Source: an uncultured Woeseia sp. (GTDB taxonomy: Bacteria; Pseudomonadota; Gammaproteobacteria; Steroidobacterales; UBA11654). From it: 59,897 nucleotides of DNA. Position 1 is the stretch's first letter, and each line of letters opens with the position of its first letter. The stretch lies in NCBI GenBank assembly GCA_964454905.1, contig CAYVTR010000008.1, forward strand, positions 1 to 59,897, in the 5' to 3' direction. The notes beneath the pieces are model-generated. The model searched no databases. It worked only from the letters and a program-made list of their open reading frames with translations, and was not told where the DNA came from. The position numbers were made by a program, and so were the translations under genes. This document shows, piece after piece, positions 16,476-26,098 of the stretch.

Positions 16476-18335
16476 ATGAATTTAAAACTAATAGCCTCTG
16501 TTTTTCTAGCTCTATGGTTGTCCTCATGCAGCGTACCAAAAAGTGATTTAGAACATGATGATAGTTCTGTGAGGAACACACAAAACGGTAAAGTGATCGG
16601 TGGGTTTAATGATAAAACTCATCAATGGCTAGGAATACAATACGGGTCTATTCCTAGCAGCGAATTCCGATGGAAAAAAGCAAAAGCTCCTGATGACTGG
16701 GAAGGCATTAAAGAATCACTTAATTTTGGCGCTACTTGTGCTCAAAAAGGCTCATTAATTAATACAGTAAAGCGAAAAGAATGGCGCGATATGGTTGGCT
16801 CAGAGGATTGTCTTTATTTAAATGTATGGGCACCCCAAATGAGTCAAGAAGAGCTTAGTAATTCATCCCCACTTCCAGTGATGGTTTGGATTCATGGAGG
16901 CAGTAATGTTTCAGGAAATGCTGATTTTTATGACCCTTCTGAACTAGCTTATCAACATAATTTAATCGTGGTGACTATAAACTATCGACTCGGTCCTTTT
17001 GGCTGGTTTAGTCATCCTAGTATTAAAGAATTGTCAGTTGATCCAATGAATGCTTCTGGTAATTATGGAAATATTGACACTATTCAGTCTCTAGAATGGG
17101 TGCAGTCTAATATCGCAAATTTTGGTGGTGACCCTACTAATATCACTATTTTTGGTGAATCAGCAGGAGGGTATAATGTCGCAGCATTATTGTCTTCACC
17201 TATAGCAGAAGGTTTATTTCATAAAGCAATTATTCAAAGTGGCGGTATCAAACCGGGTGATATCACTCATGCAGAATCTTACCTAAAAGATAATCTCCCA
17301 TGGAAAAACTACACCTCAAAAGAATTAGTCAATCAGCTATTAATTGAAAGAGATTATGCACAAACAAGAGAGGAAGCTTTGAGCCTTCAGATTGATATGA
17401 ATGATGAGGCTATCAATGATCTCCTAAGGTCATCATCAACAGAGGAAATCTATGTATCTTTTCAAGAGGCCAGAGTCAATACCAATGAAATGTTGAGACC
17501 TTTTCCAGACGGTATAGTGCTTGATCAAAATGGAATTTTAAACTCCCTTAAAAATGGGTTTTCTGCAAATATCCCTATTATTTTTGGGACAAATAGAGAT
17601 GAAATGAAGTTGTTTCTTATGACGAATCCTAGGTTAGTGCGTTCGTTTTTAGGATTACCTAGAATTAGAAACATTGAGACTTGGAATTCAGTGGTTAGCC
17701 ATCGTTCAAATACGTGGAAATTCCTTGCTGTTGATCAGCCAGCTAGGGAACTGAGTCTAATAGGGAGAAAGAATGTTTATGCTTATCGTTTTGACTGGGA
17801 TGATGAGCCCAGGAAGTTTGGGGTTAATCTTTCTGATCTTTTAGGCGCAGCCCATGCTTTTGAGATTCCCTTTGTTATGGGTAACTTTGAAGAGGACACA
17901 CTAACCAAATACATACTTAGCCGAAAAAACATGGAAGAAGTAAAAAATTTATCAAATACGATGATGAGTTATTGGGCAGAGTTTGCTTACACAGGAGCCC
18001 CTGGAAAAGGACGTAAAGGTAACCAAATAGAGTGGAGATCTTGGGATGAAATATCCCCTGAGAACTCCAAATATATAATATTTGACAGCAAAACAGATCG
18101 TGGTATTCGTATGACATCCAATGCTATTACTAAAGAATCACTTTTCGCAAGCATTGAAAAGGATGAGAATATTGATTTTAAGATGAAATGTGAAATGGTT
18201 GATTCGGCAATAAAATTTGATAATGTTGAAAATGAAAGTTGGCTTTATCAGTTTGCAGATGGTCTTTGTTCAGATTTGGATCCTGATTCTGAATGGCGAC
18301 ATTTTTGGTACGATGAATTAGATAAACCCTATTAA
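16476..18335 (+). CDS. Type-B carboxylesterase, probable lipoprotein
   Basis: Lipobox-like LSSC, SEDCLYLNVW, WIHGG, FGESAGG, GTNRDE, GAAHAFE. Confidence 0.93.
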   Translation: MNLKLIASVFLALWLSSCSVPKSDLEHDDSSVRNTQNGKVIGGFNDKTHQWLGIQYGSIPSSEFRWKKAKAPDDWEGIKESLNFGATCAQKGSLINTVKRKEWRDMVGSEDCLYLNVWAPQMSQEELSNSSPLPVMVWIHGGSNVSGNADFYDPSELAYQHNLIVVTINYRLGPFGWFSHPSIKELSVDPMNASGNYGNIDTIQSLEWVQSNIANFGGDPTNITIFGESAGGYNVAALLSSPIAEGLFHKAIIQSGGIKPGDITHAESYLKDNLPWKNYTSKELVNQLLIERDYAQTREEALSLQIDMNDEAINDLLRSSSTEEIYVSFQEARVNTNEMLRPFPDGIVLDQNGILNSLKNGFSANIPIIFGTNRDEMKLFLMTNPRLVRSFLGLPRIRNIETWNSVVSHRSNTWKFLAVDQPARELSLIGRKNVYAYRFDWDDEPRKFGVNLSDLLGAAHAFEIPFVMGNFEEDTLTKYILSRKNMEEVKNLSNTMMSYWAEFAYTGAPGKGRKGNQIEWRSWDEISPENSKYIIFDSKTDRGIRMTSNAITKESLFASIEKDENIDFKMKCEMVDSAIKFDNVENESWLYQFADGLCSDLDPDSEWRHFWYDELDKPY

Positions 18336-18349
18336 GGAACAATAGATAA

Positions 18350-18802
18350 ATGCAGTATTGGTTAATGAAATCAGAACCAGATACCTACAGTATTGATGAT
18401 CTGGAAGATTTTGTTACTGATCACTGGGATGGCATACGTAATTATCAAGTGAGAAATTTTTTTAGGGATCAAATGCAAATAGGTGATCAGGCTTTTTTCT
18501 ATCATTCAAATTGTAAAGAACCTGGCATTGTTGGCTTAATGGAAATCGCCAGTAAAGCTTATCCCGATCACACTGCATTTGATAAGAAAGAAAAGTACTT
18601 TGATCCTAAAAGTAATCCTGATGATCCCAGATGGTTAATGATTGATGTTAAATACAATAGACATTTGAAAAGGAAAATTACACTAACAGAACTGCGTCAA
18701 GTAGAATCATTACAGACCATGAAGTTATTGCAACGAGGTAACAGGTTGTCTGTGATTCCTTTAAGCAGAAAAGAGTGGGACCATATATTGGAAATGGAAT
18801 AG
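18350..18802 (+). CDS. EVE domain protein
   Basis: YWLMKSEP, WDGIRNYQVRN, FFYHS, NRLSV. Confidence 0.93.
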   Translation: MQYWLMKSEPDTYSIDDLEDFVTDHWDGIRNYQVRNFFRDQMQIGDQAFFYHSNCKEPGIVGLMEIASKAYPDHTAFDKKEKYFDPKSNPDDPRWLMIDVKYNRHLKRKITLTELRQVESLQTMKLLQRGNRLSVIPLSRKEWDHILEME

Positions 18803-18813
18803 CAGAGTTAATA

Positions 18814-19233
18814 ATGATTAAAAATAATACTAAAGTTGTCAGTCTTTTAGTTGTATTTTTCTTCTCGATCAATCTTTTCGCTGATGAAGAGCCATCAAAA
18901 CAAGTTATTATTTTGCAACCACAACATGGGGAAGAGGTTAATCAAACTTTTAAAGTTTACTTTGGGATTGAAGGTATGACTTTAGCTCCAGCTGGAACCT
19001 ATGAGCCTGCCACTGGACATCATCATTTAATTATCGATGCTGATTTACCTAATCTTTTATTACCCATACCCAGCAGTTCAAATTATCTGCATTTTGGTAA
19101 AGGTCAAGATCATACCCAGCTAACGCTTATTCCTGGTAAACACACACTTCAACTTATTCTAGGAGATGGAAACCATATACCTCACAAGCAACCATTGATT
19201 TCTAAACAAATAGAAATTACTGTTAGACCTTAA
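18814..19233 (+). CDS. DUF4399 domain secreted protein (start placed at ATG 18814)
   Basis: TGHHHLIID, HFGKGQ, PGKHTLQL.LGDGNH.PH; signal peptide. Confidence 0.85.
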   Translation: MIKNNTKVVSLLVVFFFSINLFADEEPSKQVIILQPQHGEEVNQTFKVYFGIEGMTLAPAGTYEPATGHHHLIIDADLPNLLLPIPSSSNYLHFGKGQDHTQLTLIPGKHTLQLILGDGNHIPHKQPLISKQIEITVRP

Positions 19234-20033
19234 TTCTTTTCTTCAACTTCTTTAATAAAATCTCTAATGAGACTGGCTGTTGCTTCGGTTTGGAGTTCAG
19301 TTGAGGCAATTCTAGATTCTTCTAAAATGGCTGTTTTAATTAATGGAAGGTCTTCTTTAATGAGTTCTAACTGATCAATAAAAAAATCATCAATAGCTGA
19401 CATAACGAGAATAGGGCACTTGATCTCAGATAAGACTTTCATAAAATCTTGTTTCCAAATTGCACTAAAAGCTTGATTTCTTCCTGTTTTGGATCTCAAC
19501 GCTCCTCTTAATTCTAAATCAACAAGATCAGGATCAAATGTTGGAAATAAAGTTTTAATTAGATTAAATGTCTCAATAAGATATTCACCTTTTTCATCAG
19601 CTTCTAATGCTGATGTGAGATTATTTTGAAACATCTCTCTTTCCTCAAAAGTTAAATAAGCAGCACCATTAAGGCAAAGAGAAAGGATTTGATGTTCCAA
19701 TTTGAGAGCAATTTCAGAAGCAATATGAGTGCCTGTATGATGAGCATAAATGTGGAATTGGTCCAATCCGATCTTATTTATCACTTCAATGAACCAATCT
19801 CGATAATCTTCTAGACTTGGCATACCATCAGGGTTGAATGATTCACCAAACCCAGGCGTGTCAAAGGCAAATAGAGGTCTATCGTTCTTCATTTCGAGCA
19901 TCAAACGCTCAAACATTATTGAACTTGATGGGGTCCTATGAAAAAATAATAACGGCTGCCCATCACCTCCTGTATATCTATAATGTATTTGTCCTGAGGT
20001 TATGTTTATGTAAGATTTTTTAATTTTAGACAT
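19230..20033 (-). CDS. Alpha/beta-hydrolase fold protein with non-canonical elbow (AHHTG)
   Basis: GQIHYR, PLLFFH, DTPGFGES, IKCPILVM; no GxSxG. Confidence 0.85.
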   Translation of the reverse strand: MSKIKKSYINITSGQIHYRYTGGDGQPLLFFHRTPSSSIMFERLMLEMKNDRPLFAFDTPGFGESFNPDGMPSLEDYRDWFIEVINKIGLDQFHIYAHHTGTHIASEIALKLEHQILSLCLNGAAYLTFEEREMFQNNLTSALEADEKGEYLIETFNLIKTLFPTFDPDLVDLELRGALRSKTGRNQAFSAIWKQDFMKVLSEIKCPILVMSAIDDFFIDQLELIKEDLPLIKTAILEESRIASTELQTEATASLIRDFIKEVEEKN

Positions 20034-20096
20034 TTTTTCAACCTAGAATACTATAAATAAATAATTGCCCTTAGATTAATCCAAAGCTTATTAAAT

Positions 20097-20105
20097 TGAT
20101 ATAAT
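20097..20105 (+). promoter_or_regulatory. Extended -10 promoter (TGaTATAAT) for ubiX
   Basis: Consensus TGnTATAAT 8 nt before the ubiX ATG; no SD. Confidence 0.55.
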
Positions 20106-20113
20106 GCAAAGCT

Positions 20114-20677
20114 ATGAACAGACTGATTATAGGAATTTCCGGTGCCAGTGGAATCATTTATGGTATCCGTGTTTTGCAAATTCTAAAAGGGATTGATGAC
20201 ATTGAAACCCATTTAGTTGTAACAAAAGGAGGTAAGTTAAATATCTCTCTGGAGAGCGACCTTGATCTTAAAGAGATTGAGTCTATGGCGGATGTTGTCC
20301 ATAACGATCGTAATTTAGGCGCAAGTATTGCTAGTGGTTCATTTGAGACCAGAGGAATGATTATAGCTCCTTGTTCCATGAAGACTCTTTCGGGAATTGT
20401 AAATTCATACGCAACCAATTTAATCGTCAGAGCTGCTGATGTAATTCTTAAGGAGACAAGACAATTAATTATAGTGCCCAGAGAAACCCCACTTCATCTT
20501 GGCCACACAGAGTTATTGTACAAAGCTTCATTGATGGGAGCTGATATTGTTCCTCCTAATCCCGCATTCTATAACCACCCAAAAACTATTGATGATATTG
20601 TTAATCATACTGTGGGACGTGTTCTGGATCTCGCTGGTGTTGATAATGATGTGGTTAAGCGGTGGCAAGGTGTTTAA
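20114..20677 (+). CDS. ubiX: Flavin prenyltransferase UbiX
   Basis: GISGASG, IASGS, APCSMKTL, RAADV, PRETP, PAFYNHP. Confidence 0.95.
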   Translation: MNRLIIGISGASGIIYGIRVLQILKGIDDIETHLVVTKGGKLNISLESDLDLKEIESMADVVHNDRNLGASIASGSFETRGMIIAPCSMKTLSGIVNSYATNLIVRAADVILKETRQLIIVPRETPLHLGHTELLYKASLMGADIVPPNPAFYNHPKTIDDIVNHTVGRVLDLAGVDNDVVKRWQGV

Positions 20678-20683
20678 ACGCCA

Positions 20684-21199
20684 ATGGTTAGTGAGTCCAT
20701 TGCAGAGCTAAAAGAACGTTTACAATTGTTCTTAAATGAGCACAATACTCTTACGATAGCCACCAGAAACGCACAATCAATTTGGGCAGCTACTGTGTTT
20801 TATATAGCTGATGCTGAGATGAATCTTTATTTCTTGTCCTCAGACAGAGCAAGGCATATCCAAGATATCGACAGTCATAATGAAGTTGCAGTCACTATTT
20901 ATCAAGATGTGAGTGATTGGCAATCAATCCAAGGGGTTCAAGCTACCGGTCATGTAAGTCATGTGGGAGAGGATAATAAATCTAGTGTCATAAATCAGTA
21001 CACCTCTAAATATGTTTTTCTAAAGGAGTTATTGAATAATCCTAAAGATGAGCAAGAAGAAAGGATTGCTCAGCAATTCAAAACCATCAGTCTTTTTAAA
21101 TTGGAGCCTTTTTACTATCGGATAATAGATAACTCAATTGAATTTGGTTACAAACAAGAAATTACTTTGATTGACGGTTCTTGGATTAAAAAAGATTAG
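20684..21199 (+). CDS. Pyridoxamine 5'-phosphate oxidase-like (split-barrel flavin-binding) protein
   Basis: LTIAT..WAATVFY, YFLSS..RH, VAVTI, W..IQGVQ..G, IDNS..FG.K pattern. Confidence 0.8.
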   Translation: MVSESIAELKERLQLFLNEHNTLTIATRNAQSIWAATVFYIADAEMNLYFLSSDRARHIQDIDSHNEVAVTIYQDVSDWQSIQGVQATGHVSHVGEDNKSSVINQYTSKYVFLKELLNNPKDEQEERIAQQFKTISLFKLEPFYYRIIDNSIEFGYKQEITLIDGSWIKKD

Positions 21200-21984
21200 T
21201 CTTCAGAGCTTGAGTATTTAGGTAGGGATCCTAAATGAGCTCCACTATCTACTATCAGAACTTCACCTGTTATGAGTTTTGCCCCCTCAAGAAACCACAC
21301 TAAGGTTTCAGCAACGTCTTCAGCGGTGGCAACTTGCTTTAAGGGTAATTCATTTTCAGCTTGTTCAATTAGTGCTGAATAGGCTTCATCACCCATGCCC
21401 CCTTTCAACCATCTTGTTTGAATAGGGCCCGGGGCTACAGCGTTAATTCTAATTTCAGGACCTAGAACATGAGCCAATGATTTGGTCATTATATTTAATG
21501 CAGCTTTAGAAGTGACATAGGCAATTGATGAACCAACACCATTGATACCAGCTAATGATGAGTCATTTACAATGGCACCCCCACCTTGTTGTTTCATATA
21601 TGGAACAACAGCTTTTATCATCTGATAGGGCCCAACAACATTAACTGAATAAATATCTAGGAAATCCTCACCAGATAAACCGTCAAGGTTCTCAAAAGGG
21701 TTAAATTTTGTTTTACCCGCATTATTGACAAGGTAATCAATTTTCCCCCATTTTTTTATTGTTGCTTCAACCATCGATTTACATTCATCATCATTAGAAA
21801 CATCAGCCTTAAACACGATGCACTCAACATTGTGTTGTTCAACTAATTGAGCCGTTGCCATAGCTTCTTCTTTTGATCGAGTGTAGTTAATAACAACATT
21901 ACAACCCTTCTCTGCCAGCAAGACTGCGGTAGCCGCCCCCACACCTGTGGCGGAGCCTGTAACTATTGCAACTTTTTCTTTCAT
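21196..21984 (-). CDS. Short-chain dehydrogenase/reductase
   Basis: TGSATGVG, NNAG, YVTSK, RINAVAPG. Confidence 0.93.
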   Translation of the reverse strand: MKEKVAIVTGSATGVGAATAVLLAEKGCNVVINYTRSKEEAMATAQLVEQHNVECIVFKADVSNDDECKSMVEATIKKWGKIDYLVNNAGKTKFNPFENLDGLSGEDFLDIYSVNVVGPYQMIKAVVPYMKQQGGGAIVNDSSLAGINGVGSSIAYVTSKAALNIMTKSLAHVLGPEIRINAVAPGPIQTRWLKGGMGDEAYSALIEQAENELPLKQVATAEDVAETLVWFLEGAKLITGEVLIVDSGAHLGSLPKYSSSED

Positions 21985-22127
21985 TATAATCTCTAGGTAT
22001 TAGTTGGTTATTGTATCGGTTAAACTATATTAAATCTTTGATTTAATTTGAAGTTGCTTAAGAGCGTGATGTTCAAAATGTTAAATCTAGAATATAATTT
22101 TTAATCATATTTACAGGAGATAATGAA

Positions 22128-23624
22128 GTGGATTTTAATGACATGAGAGGGTACTTAGAATTACTCAAAGATAAGGGCTTATTATTAGATTTAGATATTG
22201 AGCTTAATGTTGCAAGAGAAACCACTGAGCTTCAGGCTTTAATGAGGCATCTGCATAATCATGATGGACCGGCATTAATGTTAAATAATCTCGATGGGTA
22301 TAACACTAAAGATATTCCAGTATTATTTAACCCCTACGGTACTAGACAGAGAACTTCAATGATCTTAGGTACAGATGATCCTCTAGAAGCCAAGTTAAAA
22401 CATGCAGAAGTCTTAACTGATCAATCCAGATGGATAAAACCCAAAGTTATTGATGGCGCTAAAGCTCCTTGCAAAGAGAACAAGATAAATAAAGGGGAAA
22501 TCAATATAGGTAAACAACTTCCTCATGTTTGGTTTGGTAAAGAGGGCCCATCTTATATCACCAATGCTGTTGTGATTACAAAAGATCCCGAAACAGGTAT
22601 CCCAAATACAGGCTGTTATCGTTTGACCCAACTTTGGAACGCAACGCACCCAAATGGTGAGGTGTATTCAGATGAGGAACAGAGACAATGTTTATCTATT
22701 TTTGCTTTCTGGAACCCTCCAGGGAATCATATTGGGCTGCATTGGGCTAAAGCACAGGAAATAAACAAACCATTGGAGATAGCTATCGCCTGTGTCGTTG
22801 ACCCTGTCATACAAATTGCTGGAGCCACTAGCATACCTTTTGGATTAGATGAAATGGATTTTGCAGGTGGCTTAAGAGGTGAAGCTGTGGAAGTTGTTAA
22901 TTGTGAAACAATAGATCTACAAGTTCCTGCGAGTTCTGAGCTAGTGATAGAGGGACGATTCTTGCCTAACAGAGACGTGACGATTGGACCTCACTCTAAT
23001 CCAATAGGCTACTATGATGACGCTCAATTATTTCCATTGATTGAGGTTGATTGTATAACCCACCGAAATGAGCCTATTTGGTATGCGACCATGGAGATGG
23101 AACCTCCTTTTGACCATAACTATATGGCTTGTTTACCAATCGAAGGTGAATTACTTAGTGATTTGCAATCAAAAATACCTGAAGTCATCGATGTGGTGGT
23201 TACACCTAATTTGAGTTATTTTGTGCAACTTTCAGTTGATGGTGCACAAAAGCCACACCCTGAGTTTGGTAAATTTGTTTTGCATGCAGTTTGGGGTGCT
23301 AGCGGACGTTGGGGTCGAACTGCAAAGGTTGTTGTTGTTGTTGGACCTGATGTAAATCCTTATGATCTGTCAGAAGTTGAATGGGCTATACAGACAAGAG
23401 TCCAACCTTTTTCTGACACAATTATCAATAAATCTGGACAGGCTTTTCTCATGGATCCTTCTGCACCTAAAGACCCAGGTCATGGAATTGCTCTTCAGTC
23501 CGAACAAATAGGTATTGATGCAACAATAAAGGTTTTTGAGCGTTTTCACAGTTATCCAGAATACAGTAATGCTAACCCTGAGGATGTAGAAGCTATTGCT
23601 AAGAAGCTAAAAGATATCTTATAG
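22128..23624 (+). CDS. UbiD family prFMN-dependent protein with atypical active site
   Basis: ITKDPETG..NTGCYR, HIG, LDEMDFAG, LQVPASSELVIEG, DV.PYD..EVEWAI.TR, GIDAT; AGGAG SD. Confidence 0.92.
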   Translation: MDFNDMRGYLELLKDKGLLLDLDIELNVARETTELQALMRHLHNHDGPALMLNNLDGYNTKDIPVLFNPYGTRQRTSMILGTDDPLEAKLKHAEVLTDQSRWIKPKVIDGAKAPCKENKINKGEINIGKQLPHVWFGKEGPSYITNAVVITKDPETGIPNTGCYRLTQLWNATHPNGEVYSDEEQRQCLSIFAFWNPPGNHIGLHWAKAQEINKPLEIAIACVVDPVIQIAGATSIPFGLDEMDFAGGLRGEAVEVVNCETIDLQVPASSELVIEGRFLPNRDVTIGPHSNPIGYYDDAQLFPLIEVDCITHRNEPIWYATMEMEPPFDHNYMACLPIEGELLSDLQSKIPEVIDVVVTPNLSYFVQLSVDGAQKPHPEFGKFVLHAVWGASGRWGRTAKVVVVVGPDVNPYDLSEVEWAIQTRVQPFSDTIINKSGQAFLMDPSAPKDPGHGIALQSEQIGIDATIKVFERFHSYPEYSNANPEDVEAIAKKLKDIL

Positions 23625-23633
23625 CAAATAAAA

Positions 23634-23657
23634 AGGTCCACATAAAAATGTGGACCT
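23634..23657. terminator. Intrinsic terminator hairpin between convergent genes
   Basis: Perfect 10-bp stem AGGTCCACAT-aaaa-ATGTGGACCT with an A-run on the left (U-tract for the minus strand). Confidence 0.8.
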
Positions 23658-23679
23658 AATTAATTGATTGCAAGATCTT

Positions 23680-24306
23680 TTACATAAAGAAGCCCATATG
23701 TCCAGCTCCAACCATACACATAAGCATAGGGATTGAGAGCATGGTATTAGTTCTTGAGGCCAAAAAAGCAATTCTCGCACCTTTTGCTTTTTCCTCTGCA
23801 GTAGCTTCAACAATTCCCAAAACTTTTTTCTGATTAGGCCAAATAAGAATCCAGACATTGAAAAGCATAATCGTGCCCATCCAAGCACCAATTCCTATAA
23901 TCATGTTATATTCTGGATTAACAGGAGTTCCAACTAATCCCAACTCAAAAGCAGATTTTATACCTTCCATTCCACCACCTTTAGCATAAAGTATAGTGGC
24001 ACCTGATAACCAAGTTAGAAGTGCAGCCCATCTGAACCACAGTAATGCTCTAGGAGCAACATATTTAGTTATCGCTGCTGGTCCAGGACCACTTTCATCA
24101 GCATTTGCTTCTCCGATAGAGGGGACTTGAATGAAATTAAAATAATAAAGCAAACCAATCCAAGCGACTCCAGCAGCTACATGCACCCATGTGGAAATTG
24201 AGACCGTTGCGCCTACACCCGTAGATACATTTATTGAAAGGACTATAATTATAGAAATTACTAGTCCACTTATGATTGTTCCAGCAATCTTATCTAATGG
24301 ATTCAT
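23680..24306 (-). CDS. Urate oxidase N-terminal (PuuD/COG3748)-like membrane protein, no cytochrome c domain
   Basis: WVHVAAGVAWIGLLYYFNF, WFRWAAL.TWLSG, GTIMLFNVW..IWPNQKK, SRTNTMLSIPML. Confidence 0.85.
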   Translation of the reverse strand: MNPLDKIAGTIISGLVISIIIVLSINVSTGVGATVSISTWVHVAAGVAWIGLLYYFNFIQVPSIGEANADESGPGPAAITKYVAPRALLWFRWAALLTWLSGATILYAKGGGMEGIKSAFELGLVGTPVNPEYNMIIGIGAWMGTIMLFNVWILIWPNQKKVLGIVEATAEEKAKGARIAFLASRTNTMLSIPMLMCMVGAGHMGFFM

Positions 24307-24452
24307 ATCTTTACCCTCATGTAATTTGATTTAGAAAAAATATATCAATTTTTCATTATAGTCAAACACACCCCTCTAATTAAAATACATAATATTTTTT
24401 TCTCTAGAGAATTTATAATAGTCTTTATTCAAATTTTATAAAGGAGATTGTA

Positions 24453-24773
24453 ATGGATGTGAAAGATCGCATTAAGAACCAATTGGGTGAGTTTCCCCTT
24501 TTGCTTTATATGAAAGGAACACCAGATTTTCCTCAGTGTGGTTTTTCAGCAAAAGTTTGTGGAATCCTTAAAGCGTCAAATAAACGCTTTGCATTTGTTA
24601 ATATCCTTGAGGATCATGAGATCCGAGAGGGGCTGAAAACTTATTCAGATTGGCCCACTTTTCCTCAACTTTATGTTAACGGGGAACTAGTAGGCGGGTC
24701 TGACATTGTGGAGCAAATGTATAGTAATGGCGAATTGGATAACGTATTAGATAATGTGGAATACCCTGAATAA
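24453..24773 (+). CDS. grxD: Monothiol glutaredoxin Grx4
   Basis: MKGTPDFPQCGFS, WPTFPQLY, GGSD. Confidence 0.96.
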   Translation: MDVKDRIKNQLGEFPLLLYMKGTPDFPQCGFSAKVCGILKASNKRFAFVNILEDHEIREGLKTYSDWPTFPQLYVNGELVGGSDIVEQMYSNGELDNVLDNVEYPE

Positions 24774-24796
24774 GTATTGTCTTAGGAGAGTCTTTA

Positions 24797-26098
24797 ATTT
24801 CTAATAAAAAAACAGTTTTACTTCCTGATCTTGGAGATTTTAGCGATGTTGAAGTCGTTGAATTAATTGTAAAAGAGGGGGATGTGGTTAAAGTCGATGA
24901 CCCAATCCTTACCTTAGAGACAGATAAGGCAGCAATGGATGTTCCCAGCCCTTATCCTGGTAAAGTGATATCAATATATGCTAATAAGGGCGATAAGATT
25001 AATCAAGGCGATGATCTTTGTTTAATTGACGTTGATACTTCTCTTGCCGATGATCAAGACGATGAACCAGAAGCGGTAATGACTGAAGTCTCTGATGAGA
25101 TTACAAAAACTGAAACTACATTACCCACAGAAACGATTTCTAAGGAACATGAAACATCTAATTTTATTTCAAAGTCATTTTCAGGACTGCATGCCAGCCC
25201 TTCGGTTAGAAAGCTTGCTCGTGAATTAGGAGTTGACCTTACAGAAATTAAAGGGACTGGTTTAAAAGATCGTATCCAACCTGAAGATTTGAAGTCATAT
25301 GTTAAGGGAATCATAACAGGTAAAAAAACAGATGGGATTATGGGATTGCCAGAATTACCTATAATTGATTACGCCAATTTTGGTCCTATTGAAACTGTTC
25401 AGTTAAGTCGAATAAAGAAAATATCTGGCCCAAGACTTCAAGCCAGTTGGATTAATATACCGCATGTTACTCAGCATGATGAGGTTGATATTAATGAGTT
25501 AGAGCAAATAAGAATTGATTTAAAGGATGAGGCTAAAGCACAAGGTTTTTCATTAACTATTCTTGCTTTCATCATCAAAGGTGTTTGTAAGGTGTTACTC
25601 GACTTCCCTGATTTTAATTCCTCTTTGGATGCAAAGGGAGAGAACCTCATTCATAAAAAATACATCAATATAGGATTTGCAGCTAATACAGACAACGGGT
25701 TAATGGTGCCTGTAATAAAAAAAGCAGAACAAAAAGATCTATTAACAATTGCAAAAGAGCTTTCTGAATTAAGCAAGCTAGCTCGTGATGGTAAGATTCA
25801 ACTCAGTGATATGCAAGGAGGAACCTTTACAGTATCAAGTTTGGGTGGCTTTGGTGGCACTGGATTCACTCCGATCATTAATGCACCTGAGGTAGCAATC
25901 CTAGGGGTAGCAAGATCAAAGATTAAACCTGTTTTTGTTAAAGGCCAGTTTCTTCCAAGGTTGATACTTCCTATTTCACTTTCTTATGATCATCGGGTAA
26001 TTGATGGAGTAGGAGGGATTCAATTCACTACGCAACTTAAAAACACCTTAGAGGACCCTTCCAGTTTCCTTGACATTTCTTCAGATGAAAATGGCTGA
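24797..26098 (+). CDS. aceF: Pyruvate dehydrogenase E2 (dihydrolipoamide acetyltransferase), single lipoyl domain; start inferred at ATT 24797
   Basis: LPDLGDF...ETDKAAM lipoyl domain, HASPSVRKLAREL, IPHVTQHDE, FTPIINAPE, SYDHRVIDG. Confidence 0.92.
   Translation: MSNKKTVLLPDLGDFSDVEVVELIVKEGDVVKVDDPILTLETDKAAMDVPSPYPGKVISIYANKGDKINQGDDLCLIDVDTSLADDQDDEPEAVMTEVSDEITKTETTLPTETISKEHETSNFISKSFSGLHASPSVRKLARELGVDLTEIKGTGLKDRIQPEDLKSYVKGIITGKKTDGIMGLPELPIIDYANFGPIETVQLSRIKKISGPRLQASWINIPHVTQHDEVDINELEQIRIDLKDEAKAQGFSLTILAFIIKGVCKVLLDFPDFNSSLDAKGENLIHKKYINIGFAANTDNGLMVPVIKKAEQKDLLTIAKELSELSKLARDGKIQLSDMQGGTFTVSSLGGFGGTGFTPIINAPEVAILGVARSKIKPVFVKGQFLPRLILPISLSYDHRVIDGVGGIQFTTQLKNTLEDPSSFLDISSDENG

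Follow-up and report, generated by a model that had tools for sequence, protein, structure and literature searches.

A conserved three-gene unit with an atypical UbiD-family enzyme adjoins the only ubiX of a marine gammaproteobacterial genome

The genes surrounding a UbiD-family enzyme were investigated in a 59,897-nucleotide stretch of DNA from an uncultured Woeseia sp. (contig CAYVTR010000008.1 of assembly GCA_964454905.1), referred to here as the window. Three genes, which encode a PNPOx-like split-barrel protein, a classical short-chain dehydrogenase/reductase (SDR) and the UbiD-family enzyme, form a conserved unit that is docked to the only ubiX of the genome, and an adjacent gene for an atypical alpha/beta-hydrolase-fold protein is a bystander. 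The three genes of this core unit were gained, kept and lost together. The UbiD-family enzyme belongs to a clade in which both glutamates of the active-site network are replaced, and the gene set is a variant of the UbiX/UbiD kind that is undescribed in the libraries and papers searched.

Layout, conservation and joint decay of the unit

Open reading frames (ORFs), with their coordinates and strands, were taken from an ORF listing of the window, and families were assigned with Pfam and NCBIfam profiles. Five ORFs (19230-23624) are arranged around two divergent pairs. In the first pair, a gene for an atypical alpha/beta-fold protein of 267 amino acids (19230-20033, minus strand; Abhydrolase_1 with a weak 34.6 bits) is separated by 80 bp from ubiX (20114-20677, plus strand; 187 amino acids), whose product matches the flavin prenyltransferase profile NF004685 over its full length (residues 1-186 on model positions 1-186 of 187; 259.9 bits for a cut-off of 188). 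The gene for the PNPOx-like split-barrel protein (20684-21199, plus strand; 171 amino acids; PNPOx_N 32.6 bits for a cut-off of 28.1) begins after a spacing of 6 nt and converges, with a 4-nt overlap, on the SDR gene (21196-21984, minus strand; 262 amino acids). The SDR gene in turn is divergent from the gene of the UbiD-family enzyme (22128-23624, plus strand; 498 amino acids) across an intergenic region of 143 bp, delimited by reading the sequence (21985-22127). The UbiD gene starts with GTG and is preceded by AGGAG 8 nt upstream. Between its stop codon and the convergent next gene lies a hairpin with a perfect 10-bp palindromic stem and a T-run (23634-23657), which is likely a bidirectional terminator. 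Counts of promoter-like and terminator-like elements across the region were not above shuffled expectation; this hairpin alone stands out, by its quality. A preliminary description of this DNA had reported two divergent pairs closed by a terminator, and the ORFs, their orientations and the hairpin are indeed as it said.

The window genome is a 1.49-Mb assembly of 40 contigs, 95% complete, and its closest public relatives are marine gammaproteobacterial metagenome-assembled or single-amplified genomes, some of them labelled uncultured Woeseia or Woeseiaceae. We compared it with 40 relatives, 19 of the same family and 21 from other families of the order. Full-length orthologs of the window UbiD were found in 17 of the 19 other family genomes (77-97% identity) and in four of the 21 genomes from other families, namely, G021, G030, G034 and G040 (62-65% identity). 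Within the family, an entire block of eight genes, from a carboxylesterase gene to the UbiD gene, is syntenic, and since this block includes unrelated genes, adjacency within the family is uninformative. Conservation outside the family was assessed on public loci. A scan of one genome per species yielded 236 stretches with UbiD relatives, of which the best 80, each at least 60% identical to the window UbiD by tblastn, were analyzed. These comprise 15 family-level loci and 65 loci outside the family, 45 of which extend at least 7 kb upstream. In these 45 upstream-complete loci, the SDR gene was present in 37, ubiX in 34, the PNPOx-like gene in 24 and the hydrolase gene in none. The compact UbiX/PNPOx-like/SDR/UbiD layout of the window recurs in 12 of the 29 loci that hold both an SDR and a PNPOx-like gene, and a metagenome scan returned more loci of like kind. 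The co-occurrence in other genomes that the preliminary description had predicted for all five genes was thus observed for four of them and failed for the hydrolase.

The SDR is an obligate partner of the UbiD-family enzyme. SDR orthologs (65-98% identity) were detected in 20 of the 41 genomes. Outside the family, their distribution coincides with that of the UbiD ortholog: all four genomes with the UbiD have an SDR ortholog, and the 17 others do not. In 34 of the 65 public loci outside the family, moreover, the two genes lie side by side in divergent orientation. The translation contains the classical SDR motifs TGSATGVG, NNAG and YVTSK (Y-x-x-x-K) and matches adh_short (171.8 bits) and adh_short_C2 (194 bits), and none of the NCBIfam equivalogs reached its cut-off. 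The PNPOx-like profile also matched 20 of the 41 genomes, all of them with a window-type UbiD, and none of the nine genomes that carry canonical UbiD only (the unpublished genome G035 is among these nine). The adh_short_C2 and PNPOx_N matches bear out the earlier reading of an SDR interleaved with a flavin-type split barrel.

Decay of the unit was observed in a congener (G016, 87% complete). At its locus (L191, G016:C1:44000-58000), the five flanking genes for the carboxylesterase, the EVE-domain protein, the DUF4399 protein, the hydrolase and UbiX are intact, with no stops. In contrast, the PNPOx-like gene (5 stops), the SDR gene (several stops and split matches) and the UbiD gene (stops and frame breaks) are three adjacent pseudogenes, at about 6745-9664 of L191. 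Because the flanking genes are clean, this loss reflects local decay rather than poor assembly, indicating that the PNPOx-like, SDR and UbiD genes make up one functional unit. It also suggests that ubiX (86% identity) was kept for other paralogs, and it shows that the hydrolase (69% identity) is independent of the unit. The locus gives the picture of a recent module loss in a streamlined genome.

The window enzyme is not the only UbiD of its genome, since UbiD-family genes were found on four contigs: C1 (98723-100165), C2 (65553-66521), C6 (2944-3909) and C8, which is the window. In contrast, ubiX is the sole PF02441 match. Being the only copy, it presumably serves all four, and we infer that its product makes the reduced prenylated flavin mononucleotide (prFMNH2) for the window UbiD and for the three other paralogs. 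UbiX is also single-copy in G016, G030, G034 and G040, each time in the same neighbourhood, even in G030, which has a canonical UbiD. The proposal of a dedicated and undescribed gene set therefore holds for the UbiD and the conserved set and does not extend to ubiX, the sole copy beside four UbiD paralogs. No second PF02441 flavoprotein and no coaBC (TIGR00521) were found in this 95% complete assembly; either coaBC lies in an assembly gap or the synthesis of coenzyme A (CoA) from pantothenate is unusual in this organism.

The preliminary description had included the hydrolase in a five-gene unit, and a five-gene catabolic pathway with the alpha/beta-fold protein as a working member has some observations in its favour. 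The gene is divergent from ubiX across just 80 bp, and it adjoins the cluster in 13 of the 15 family-level public loci, the remaining two being too short to tell. Its nucleophile elbow, moreover, is under selection: A-H-H-T-G, which aligns with GHDRG of 3qyj and GWSLG of 4g5x, was present in all 15 aligned sequences (the window protein and 14 orthologs). This elbow departs from the pattern Sm-x-Ser/Asp/Cys-x-Sm in having a His at the nucleophile position, and the protein lacks the His of the usual triad position, so that the active site is non-canonical, as originally noticed. A different alpha/beta hydrolase also lies directly 3' of a UbiD gene of a 58%-identical subtype at another locus (L155). 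However, the family-wide eight-gene synteny deprives the adjacency of its meaning, no hydrolase ortholog was found nearby in any of the 45 loci outside the family, and the gene is intact in G016 although the unit has decayed there. The hydrolase is a lineage-specific neighbour outside the conserved unit, and its participation in a pathway with the other genes is very improbable. At L155 (7995-13872), the UbiD and hydrolase genes are followed by genes for CMD-family, carbon-nitrogen hydrolase, acetyl-CoA-synthetase-like and zinc alcohol dehydrogenase proteins.

A UbiD clade without the glutamate pair

The window UbiD matches PF20695, PF01977 and PF20696, all above cut-off, as well as TIGR00148 (271.7 bits for a cut-off of 244.85). 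It stays far below the cut-offs of the canonical-UbiD equivalog NF008175 (159.2 bits versus 788) and of the VdcC profile NF041204 (233 bits versus 650). Its best relative in the PDB is 6h6x, which, together with 6h6v, we take to be PtHmfF (157.5 bits, E 4.4e-45, mainly over residues 201-469). Both in the alignment to 6h6x and in the family alignment, GPHSN of the window protein lies opposite GPFGE, confirming the non-canonical site that had been read from the translation. H-S-N thus stands in place of F-G-E, and Ile286 and Asn291 occupy the positions of Glu277 and Glu282 of Fdc1. Of the Glu-Arg-Glu/Asp network (E277-R173-E282 in Fdc1), Arg165 alone is retained. In the Fdc1 study, this network, defined by Glu277 and Glu282, has roles in catalysis and in maturation, and activity survives Glu-to-Asp substitutions only (PMC5818171).

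The replacement is a property of the clade. Among 121 clade sequences, each at least 58% identical to the window UbiD, H289 was conserved in 120, S290 in 121 and N291 in 119. The same holds for other residues, with N160, Y164, R165 and E242 present in all 121 sequences and H205 in 120; N160, H205 and E242 fall in columns of the UbiD family alignment in which N, H and E, respectively, are conserved. A homologue search against 1.84 billion cluster representatives gave 3958 matches, among which full-length representatives with at least 43% identity to the window UbiD number only about six, the remainder reaching at most 38%. In the family alignment, clade members show H-[S/G/A]-[N/H] where other UbiDs have F-G-E, and they also lack the Glu five residues upstream of the motif, a spacing that fits Glu277 and Glu282 of Fdc1. 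In a quick maximum-likelihood tree of 68 rows, the clade of the window UbiD had a support of 99 in the Shimodaira-Hasegawa-like approximate likelihood ratio test and was nested in clades with support of 96, 98 and 99, all of whose members lack F-G-E. Canonical UbiD falls outside these clades, as do the C1 and C2 paralogs of the window genome, which pair as sisters on a long branch. Both of these paralogs retain the F-G-E motif, and the C6 paralog has the variant GEFG there; the C6 gene is broken by a run of N and adjoins carbon-nitrogen-hydrolase-like and zinc-type alcohol dehydrogenase-like genes.

NCBIfam profiles assigned no specific family to clade members or their nearest relatives without F-G-E (P0001-P0028), and the database names of 120 homolog clusters were generic or automatic UbiD labels only. 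No curated family or solved structure was found for the I-G-x-H-S-N clade in the libraries searched. Neither a UbiD clade without the Glu pair nor a PNPOx-type helper was described in the literature covered by our search, which did not extend to subscription-only papers. At one further locus (L112, 7650-14406), two UbiD genes, encoding clade members of 43% identity, flank two AMP-ligase genes.

The enzyme might instead belong to the ubiquinone pathway, as the 4-hydroxy-3-polyprenylbenzoate decarboxylase of lineages without canonical UbiD that would use the adjacent sole ubiX. The window genome indeed carries ubiA (309.5 bits, above cut-off) and ubiG (276 bits), both of them on other contigs, in agreement with the earlier statement that no ubiquinone genes are adjacent. 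A separate canonical ubiD, which the preliminary description had proposed to look for, was found neither in this genome nor in the 19 other family genomes, and it was also not found in G034 (100% complete) and G040 (96%), which carry ubiA together with an HSN-type UbiD. Moreover, the window UbiD has the highest NF008175 score of the four paralogs (159 bits, the others reaching 121, 108 and 99.5), and an identity band of 60-65% over many families, together with the synteny of downstream Urate_ox_N-like and glutaredoxin genes, suggests an old, vertically inherited core gene.

Several observations argue against this role. Canonical UbiD was found in 11 of the 41 genomes, and G021 and G030 hold it (784 and 823 bits) beside their HSN-type ortholog. 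Conversely, eight genomes of the order have neither enzyme. Of the four among them that were searched for ubiA, three contain it (G020, G026 and, as a partial match over residues 109-295, G024) and G025 gave no match; the remaining four were not searched. Genomes with ubiA that lack both UbiD types imply that a UbiD-independent route exists in the order. In G016 the unit has decayed and ubiG remains intact; neither ubiA nor the gene that flanks it was found there, so that this region is probably unassembled and says nothing on ubiquinone. In addition, no role in ubiquinone synthesis is known for the obligate partners, the SDR and the PNPOx-like protein, the NF008175 score is far under its cut-off, and the C1 and C2 paralogs retain the FGE motif, with GEFG in C6. 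Taken together, we consider a function in ubiquinone synthesis improbable. UbiA matches in six congeners (G003, G006, G012, G013, G014 and G015) cross one stop near the N-terminus; most likely these genes are not broken and the TTG start of the query was over-extended.

Proposed function of the unit and its split-barrel protein

The reading that we favour, with even confidence for and against, is that the window UbiD is a prFMN-dependent (de)carboxylase for an acid, with a His as acid/base, an SDR that acts on the same substrate and a split-barrel protein that serves as a flavin or prFMN helper. The UbiD would bind prFMN, its Arg and presumed metal ligands being invariant, and would (de)carboxylate a small (hetero)aromatic or alpha,beta-unsaturated acid, with the invariant His289 of the H-S-N motif assuming the acid/base role of the lost Glu. 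The SDR would catalyse an NAD(P)-dependent hydroxyl/carbonyl conversion of the same substrate, either preceding or following the decarboxylation. As for the split-barrel protein, it may handle flavin and would most likely mature prFMN, or deliver it to a UbiD that lacks the Glu network. Such a helper role fits, since a UbiD clade without both Glu residues is accompanied by a private split-barrel protein.

The properties of this protein were examined by profile and fold comparison. It passes PF01243 narrowly, with the PNPOx_N score given above, and has the corresponding split-barrel fold, whereas it reaches just 57.9 of the 176 bits of the YhbP equivalog NF002900. Its AlphaFold2 model, with a predicted local distance difference test score of 95.7, is a split barrel with Z scores of 14-17 to HugZ/ChuZ-like and PNPOx-like chains. 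The matches listed in the fold searches include PNPOx/HugZ-like split barrels, and 9SRG/9SRJ are not among them. Chains that bind flavin mononucleotide (FMN), flavin adenine dinucleotide or F420 trail the top neighbours by about one to two Z units, and the fold does not tell the ligand, since heme and FMN binders are tied. Prediction of a complex between UbiD and the PNPOx-like protein gave a score of 0.00, which is no evidence either way on binding. In the gene order, the PNPOx-like gene is paired with ubiX and not with the SDR or UbiD gene.

The gene set resembles the PhdA/PhdB/PhdC operon of Mycolicibacterium fortuitum, which encodes a phenazine-1-carboxylate decarboxylase and consists of a UbiD, a UbiX and a small split-barrel-type flavin-binding protein (PMC13040415). 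According to that paper, PhdC, encoded with PhdA (the UbiD) and PhdB (the UbiX), matures prFMN and belongs to the HpaC-like flavin-reductase family; it is reported there from Actinomycetota only (86 sequences), and UbiDs are also activated by YclD, a maturase distantly homologous to PhdC, and by the chaperone LpdD. Maturases of the PhdC/YclD type are characterised by conserved Glu47 and Glu136 and by oxidising the prFMN radical or prFMNH2 to the iminium form and activating a UbiD. The split-barrel protein of the window would be a functional analogue of PhdC, YclD or LpdD. Unlike PhdC, a class I flavin reductase of the HpaC-like type, it matches PNPOx_N and folds nearest HugZ/PNPOx-like chains, and unlike the Phd system, the window unit adds an obligate SDR and has a UbiD without the Glu pair. 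The hydroxyarylic acid decarboxylases LpdBCD and VdcBCD, as outlined in the same source (PMC13040415), similarly combine a UbiD and a UbiX with a dedicated accessory protein, a small subunit or chaperone, that aids cofactor loading; in contrast, the accessory protein of the window is of another fold family and an SDR partner is present.

Three further systems were compared. In the HmfF/HmfG system for 2,5-furandicarboxylate, which contains the best solved relative by sequence, the UbiD likewise works with a UbiX; G-P-F-G-E of HmfF stands opposite G-P-H-S-N of the window protein, and no other hmf genes lie near the window UbiD. Some hmf clusters include an SDR, psfG, that is proposed to supply the oxidised acid (PMC8091172). 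Canonical UbiD (NF008175) shares with the window UbiD the three-domain architecture and the dependence on the UbiX product, but it is on a separate branch of the tree and coexists with the HSN type in G021 and G030. Finally, the xanthine-8-carboxylate decarboxylase XCDC of Cupriavidus sp. LA-1, a divergent UbiD clustered with a UbiX of its own, converts an N-heterocyclic acid and belongs to a catabolic cluster (PMC12391406); in a comparison of gene context, the molybdenum dehydrogenase and isomerase that neighbour it were not seen around the window UbiD.

Some observations weigh against the favoured reading. Since Fdc1 tolerates Glu-to-Asp substitutions only, a UbiD with Ile and Asn at these positions may decarboxylate in an unusual manner or be unable to decarboxylate. 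That N160, H201/H205 and E242 are the ligands of Mn, K and prFMN is our assumption from general knowledge of the family and from conservation in the alignment, not from a structure. The helper role is an analogy rather than homology, because a phmmer search of the split-barrel protein against the PDB gave no chain at E<=0.01, its nearest folds are HugZ/ChuZ-like, tied with FMN-binding ones, and PhdC is HpaC-like. The top fold neighbours (At3g03890, ChuZ, HugZ and MSMEG_6519; Z 16-17) are, in addition, heme binding. Type-B loci such as that of G040 have UbiD and SDR without the PNPOx-like gene, which was not found in G040 or in G021 (the latter 82% complete). An NMO-family (PF03060) gene for an FMN-dependent enzyme follows the SDR gene 3' in 19 of the 65 public loci outside the family, and the flavoproteins could accordingly be pathway enzymes. 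Lastly, no substrate-defining gene is consistently linked to the unit, and its chemistry is deduced from family membership only; the catabolic role and the (hetero)aromatic substrate of the preliminary description are likewise conjectural.

A stronger version of the favoured reading, which we consider doubtful, would make the HSN UbiDs a distinct prFMN class with His/Asn acid/base chemistry, a required and dedicated PNPOx-type maturase and an SDR-coupled redox reaction that goes beyond simple reversible decarboxylation.

The heme-binding split barrels at the top of the fold list raise another explanation, a tetrapyrrole or bilin function in which the split barrel would be a HugZ-like heme binder or degrader working with an RCC-reductase-like protein of the bilin-reductase fold. 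A gene for such a protein (PF06405) lies 3' of the SDR gene in G030 and G021, two of the four genomes from other families with the UbiD ortholog, and the window genome has an ortholog elsewhere (C1:13181-14011; 67% identical to the G030 gene). However, FMN-binding split barrels lie within about 1 Z unit and are counted as tied, the linkage to ubiX and UbiD favours flavin over heme, and, at the thresholds applied, a search of the 80 public loci did not detect the RCC-reductase-like gene. A tetrapyrrole function is therefore highly unlikely. The RCC-reductase-like gene itself was considered as a member of the unit and set aside, being adjacent in two of the four genomes from other families and in 0 of 80 public loci. 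In the window genome it is divergent from a second alpha/beta-fold gene, the two together spanning C1:12260-14011 (L190, 4261-6012), and the product of this second gene, too, apparently has no Ser at its elbow. This second hydrolase and the window hydrolase are just 20% identical and thus are not paralogs of note.

Variable neighbours, flanking genes and significance

The neighbours of the unit were counted in the 65 public loci outside the family, where they are restricted to sublineages. Besides the NMO-family gene, we observed an AMP-binding ligase gene divergent from UbiD (12/65), a downstream 4HBT thioesterase gene (13/65), nadC (16/65) and a Rieske/VanA-type oxygenase gene (11/65). Downstream of UbiD and in the same direction lie genes for ApbA (14/65), the large and small aconitase subunits (27/65 and 22/65) and a phosphoenolpyruvate-mutase/isocitrate-lyase-family protein (20/65). 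In a Foliamicus-like lineage, UbiX, SDR and NMO genes form an operon 4-11 kb from UbiD, and the PNPOx-like gene was not found. The window lacks all of these variable neighbours. In the window genome, NMO had no match and the others had matches of at most 34% identity, the RCC-reductase-like gene excepted.

These neighbours would suit an alternative in which the flavoprotein or flavoproteins and the SDR are pathway enzymes acting on an acyl/enoyl or CoA-activated acid, while the UbiD removes the carboxylate of an alpha,beta-unsaturated intermediate. The enzymes pictured are a FabG-like SDR, a FabK-like NMO, an AMP-ligase and a thioesterase for some lineages, and an aconitase-like dehydratase for others. 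The archaeal mevalonate route follows such a logic of dehydratase and UbiD-type decarboxylase. The NMO gene after the SDR, the AMP-binding ligase and thioesterase genes, the AMP-ligases beside the 43%-identical clade members of L112, and the co-directional ApbA, aconitase and phosphoenolpyruvate-mutase/isocitrate-lyase-family genes 3' of UbiD all agree with this alternative. Against it, the extras are absent from the window and have no close ortholog in its genome, they vary by sublineage in the manner expected of flanking synteny, and the PNPOx-like gene is placed with ubiX and not with the SDR or UbiD gene. We regard this explanation as unlikely, and the variable neighbours as leads to CoA-level or enoate chemistry that indicate no consistent substrate.

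Upstream, the window cluster is flanked by genes for a lipoprotein-type carboxylesterase of type B (16476-18335, plus strand), an EVE-domain protein (18350-18802, plus strand) and a DUF4399 protein (18775-19233, plus strand), and this three-gene block is syntenic with the cluster family-wide. Downstream lie genes for a Urate_ox_N-like membrane protein of 208 amino acids that has the Urate_ox_N (PuuD N-terminal) domain only (23680-24306, minus strand) and for a monothiol glutaredoxin of the CGFS type (24453-24773, plus strand), followed further downstream by 2-oxoacid dehydrogenase E2 and E3 genes. The Urate_ox_N-like and glutaredoxin pair recurs 3' of UbiD in the Foliamicus-like lineage, a distant one, with 55-58% and 59-66% identity, respectively, which suggests an old conserved synteny.

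All five genes are covered, at 92-100% identity, by RNA-library contigs of four marine runs, each from a different study. These contigs give a hint of transcription, a weak one since such RNA libraries can contain DNA. Dips in depth over both divergent intergenic regions in three of the RNA-library runs were set aside, as contig depth cannot show such features. The inverted repeats in the divergent intergenic regions are all imperfect, and an Rfam scan of positions 18500-25000 revealed no riboswitch and only two sub-threshold chance matches to miRNA families.

At 90% identity the clade comprises at least 211 clusters, and its departure from the Glu-Arg-Glu rule makes it interesting for the mechanism. 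Since it nonetheless keeps the rest of the cofactor site, it offers a natural test of prFMN chemistry with other residues. If the split-barrel protein is a helper, the list of prFMN helpers (LpdD, PhdC and YclD) would gain a new fold family and the Gammaproteobacteria, and biocatalysis would have a practical means to activate recalcitrant UbiD enzymes. Among the carriers are pelagic bacteria with streamlined genomes of about 1.5 Mb, and four UbiD paralogs with one UbiX in such a genome hint at an unrecognised marine role for the (de)carboxylation of dissolved organic acids.

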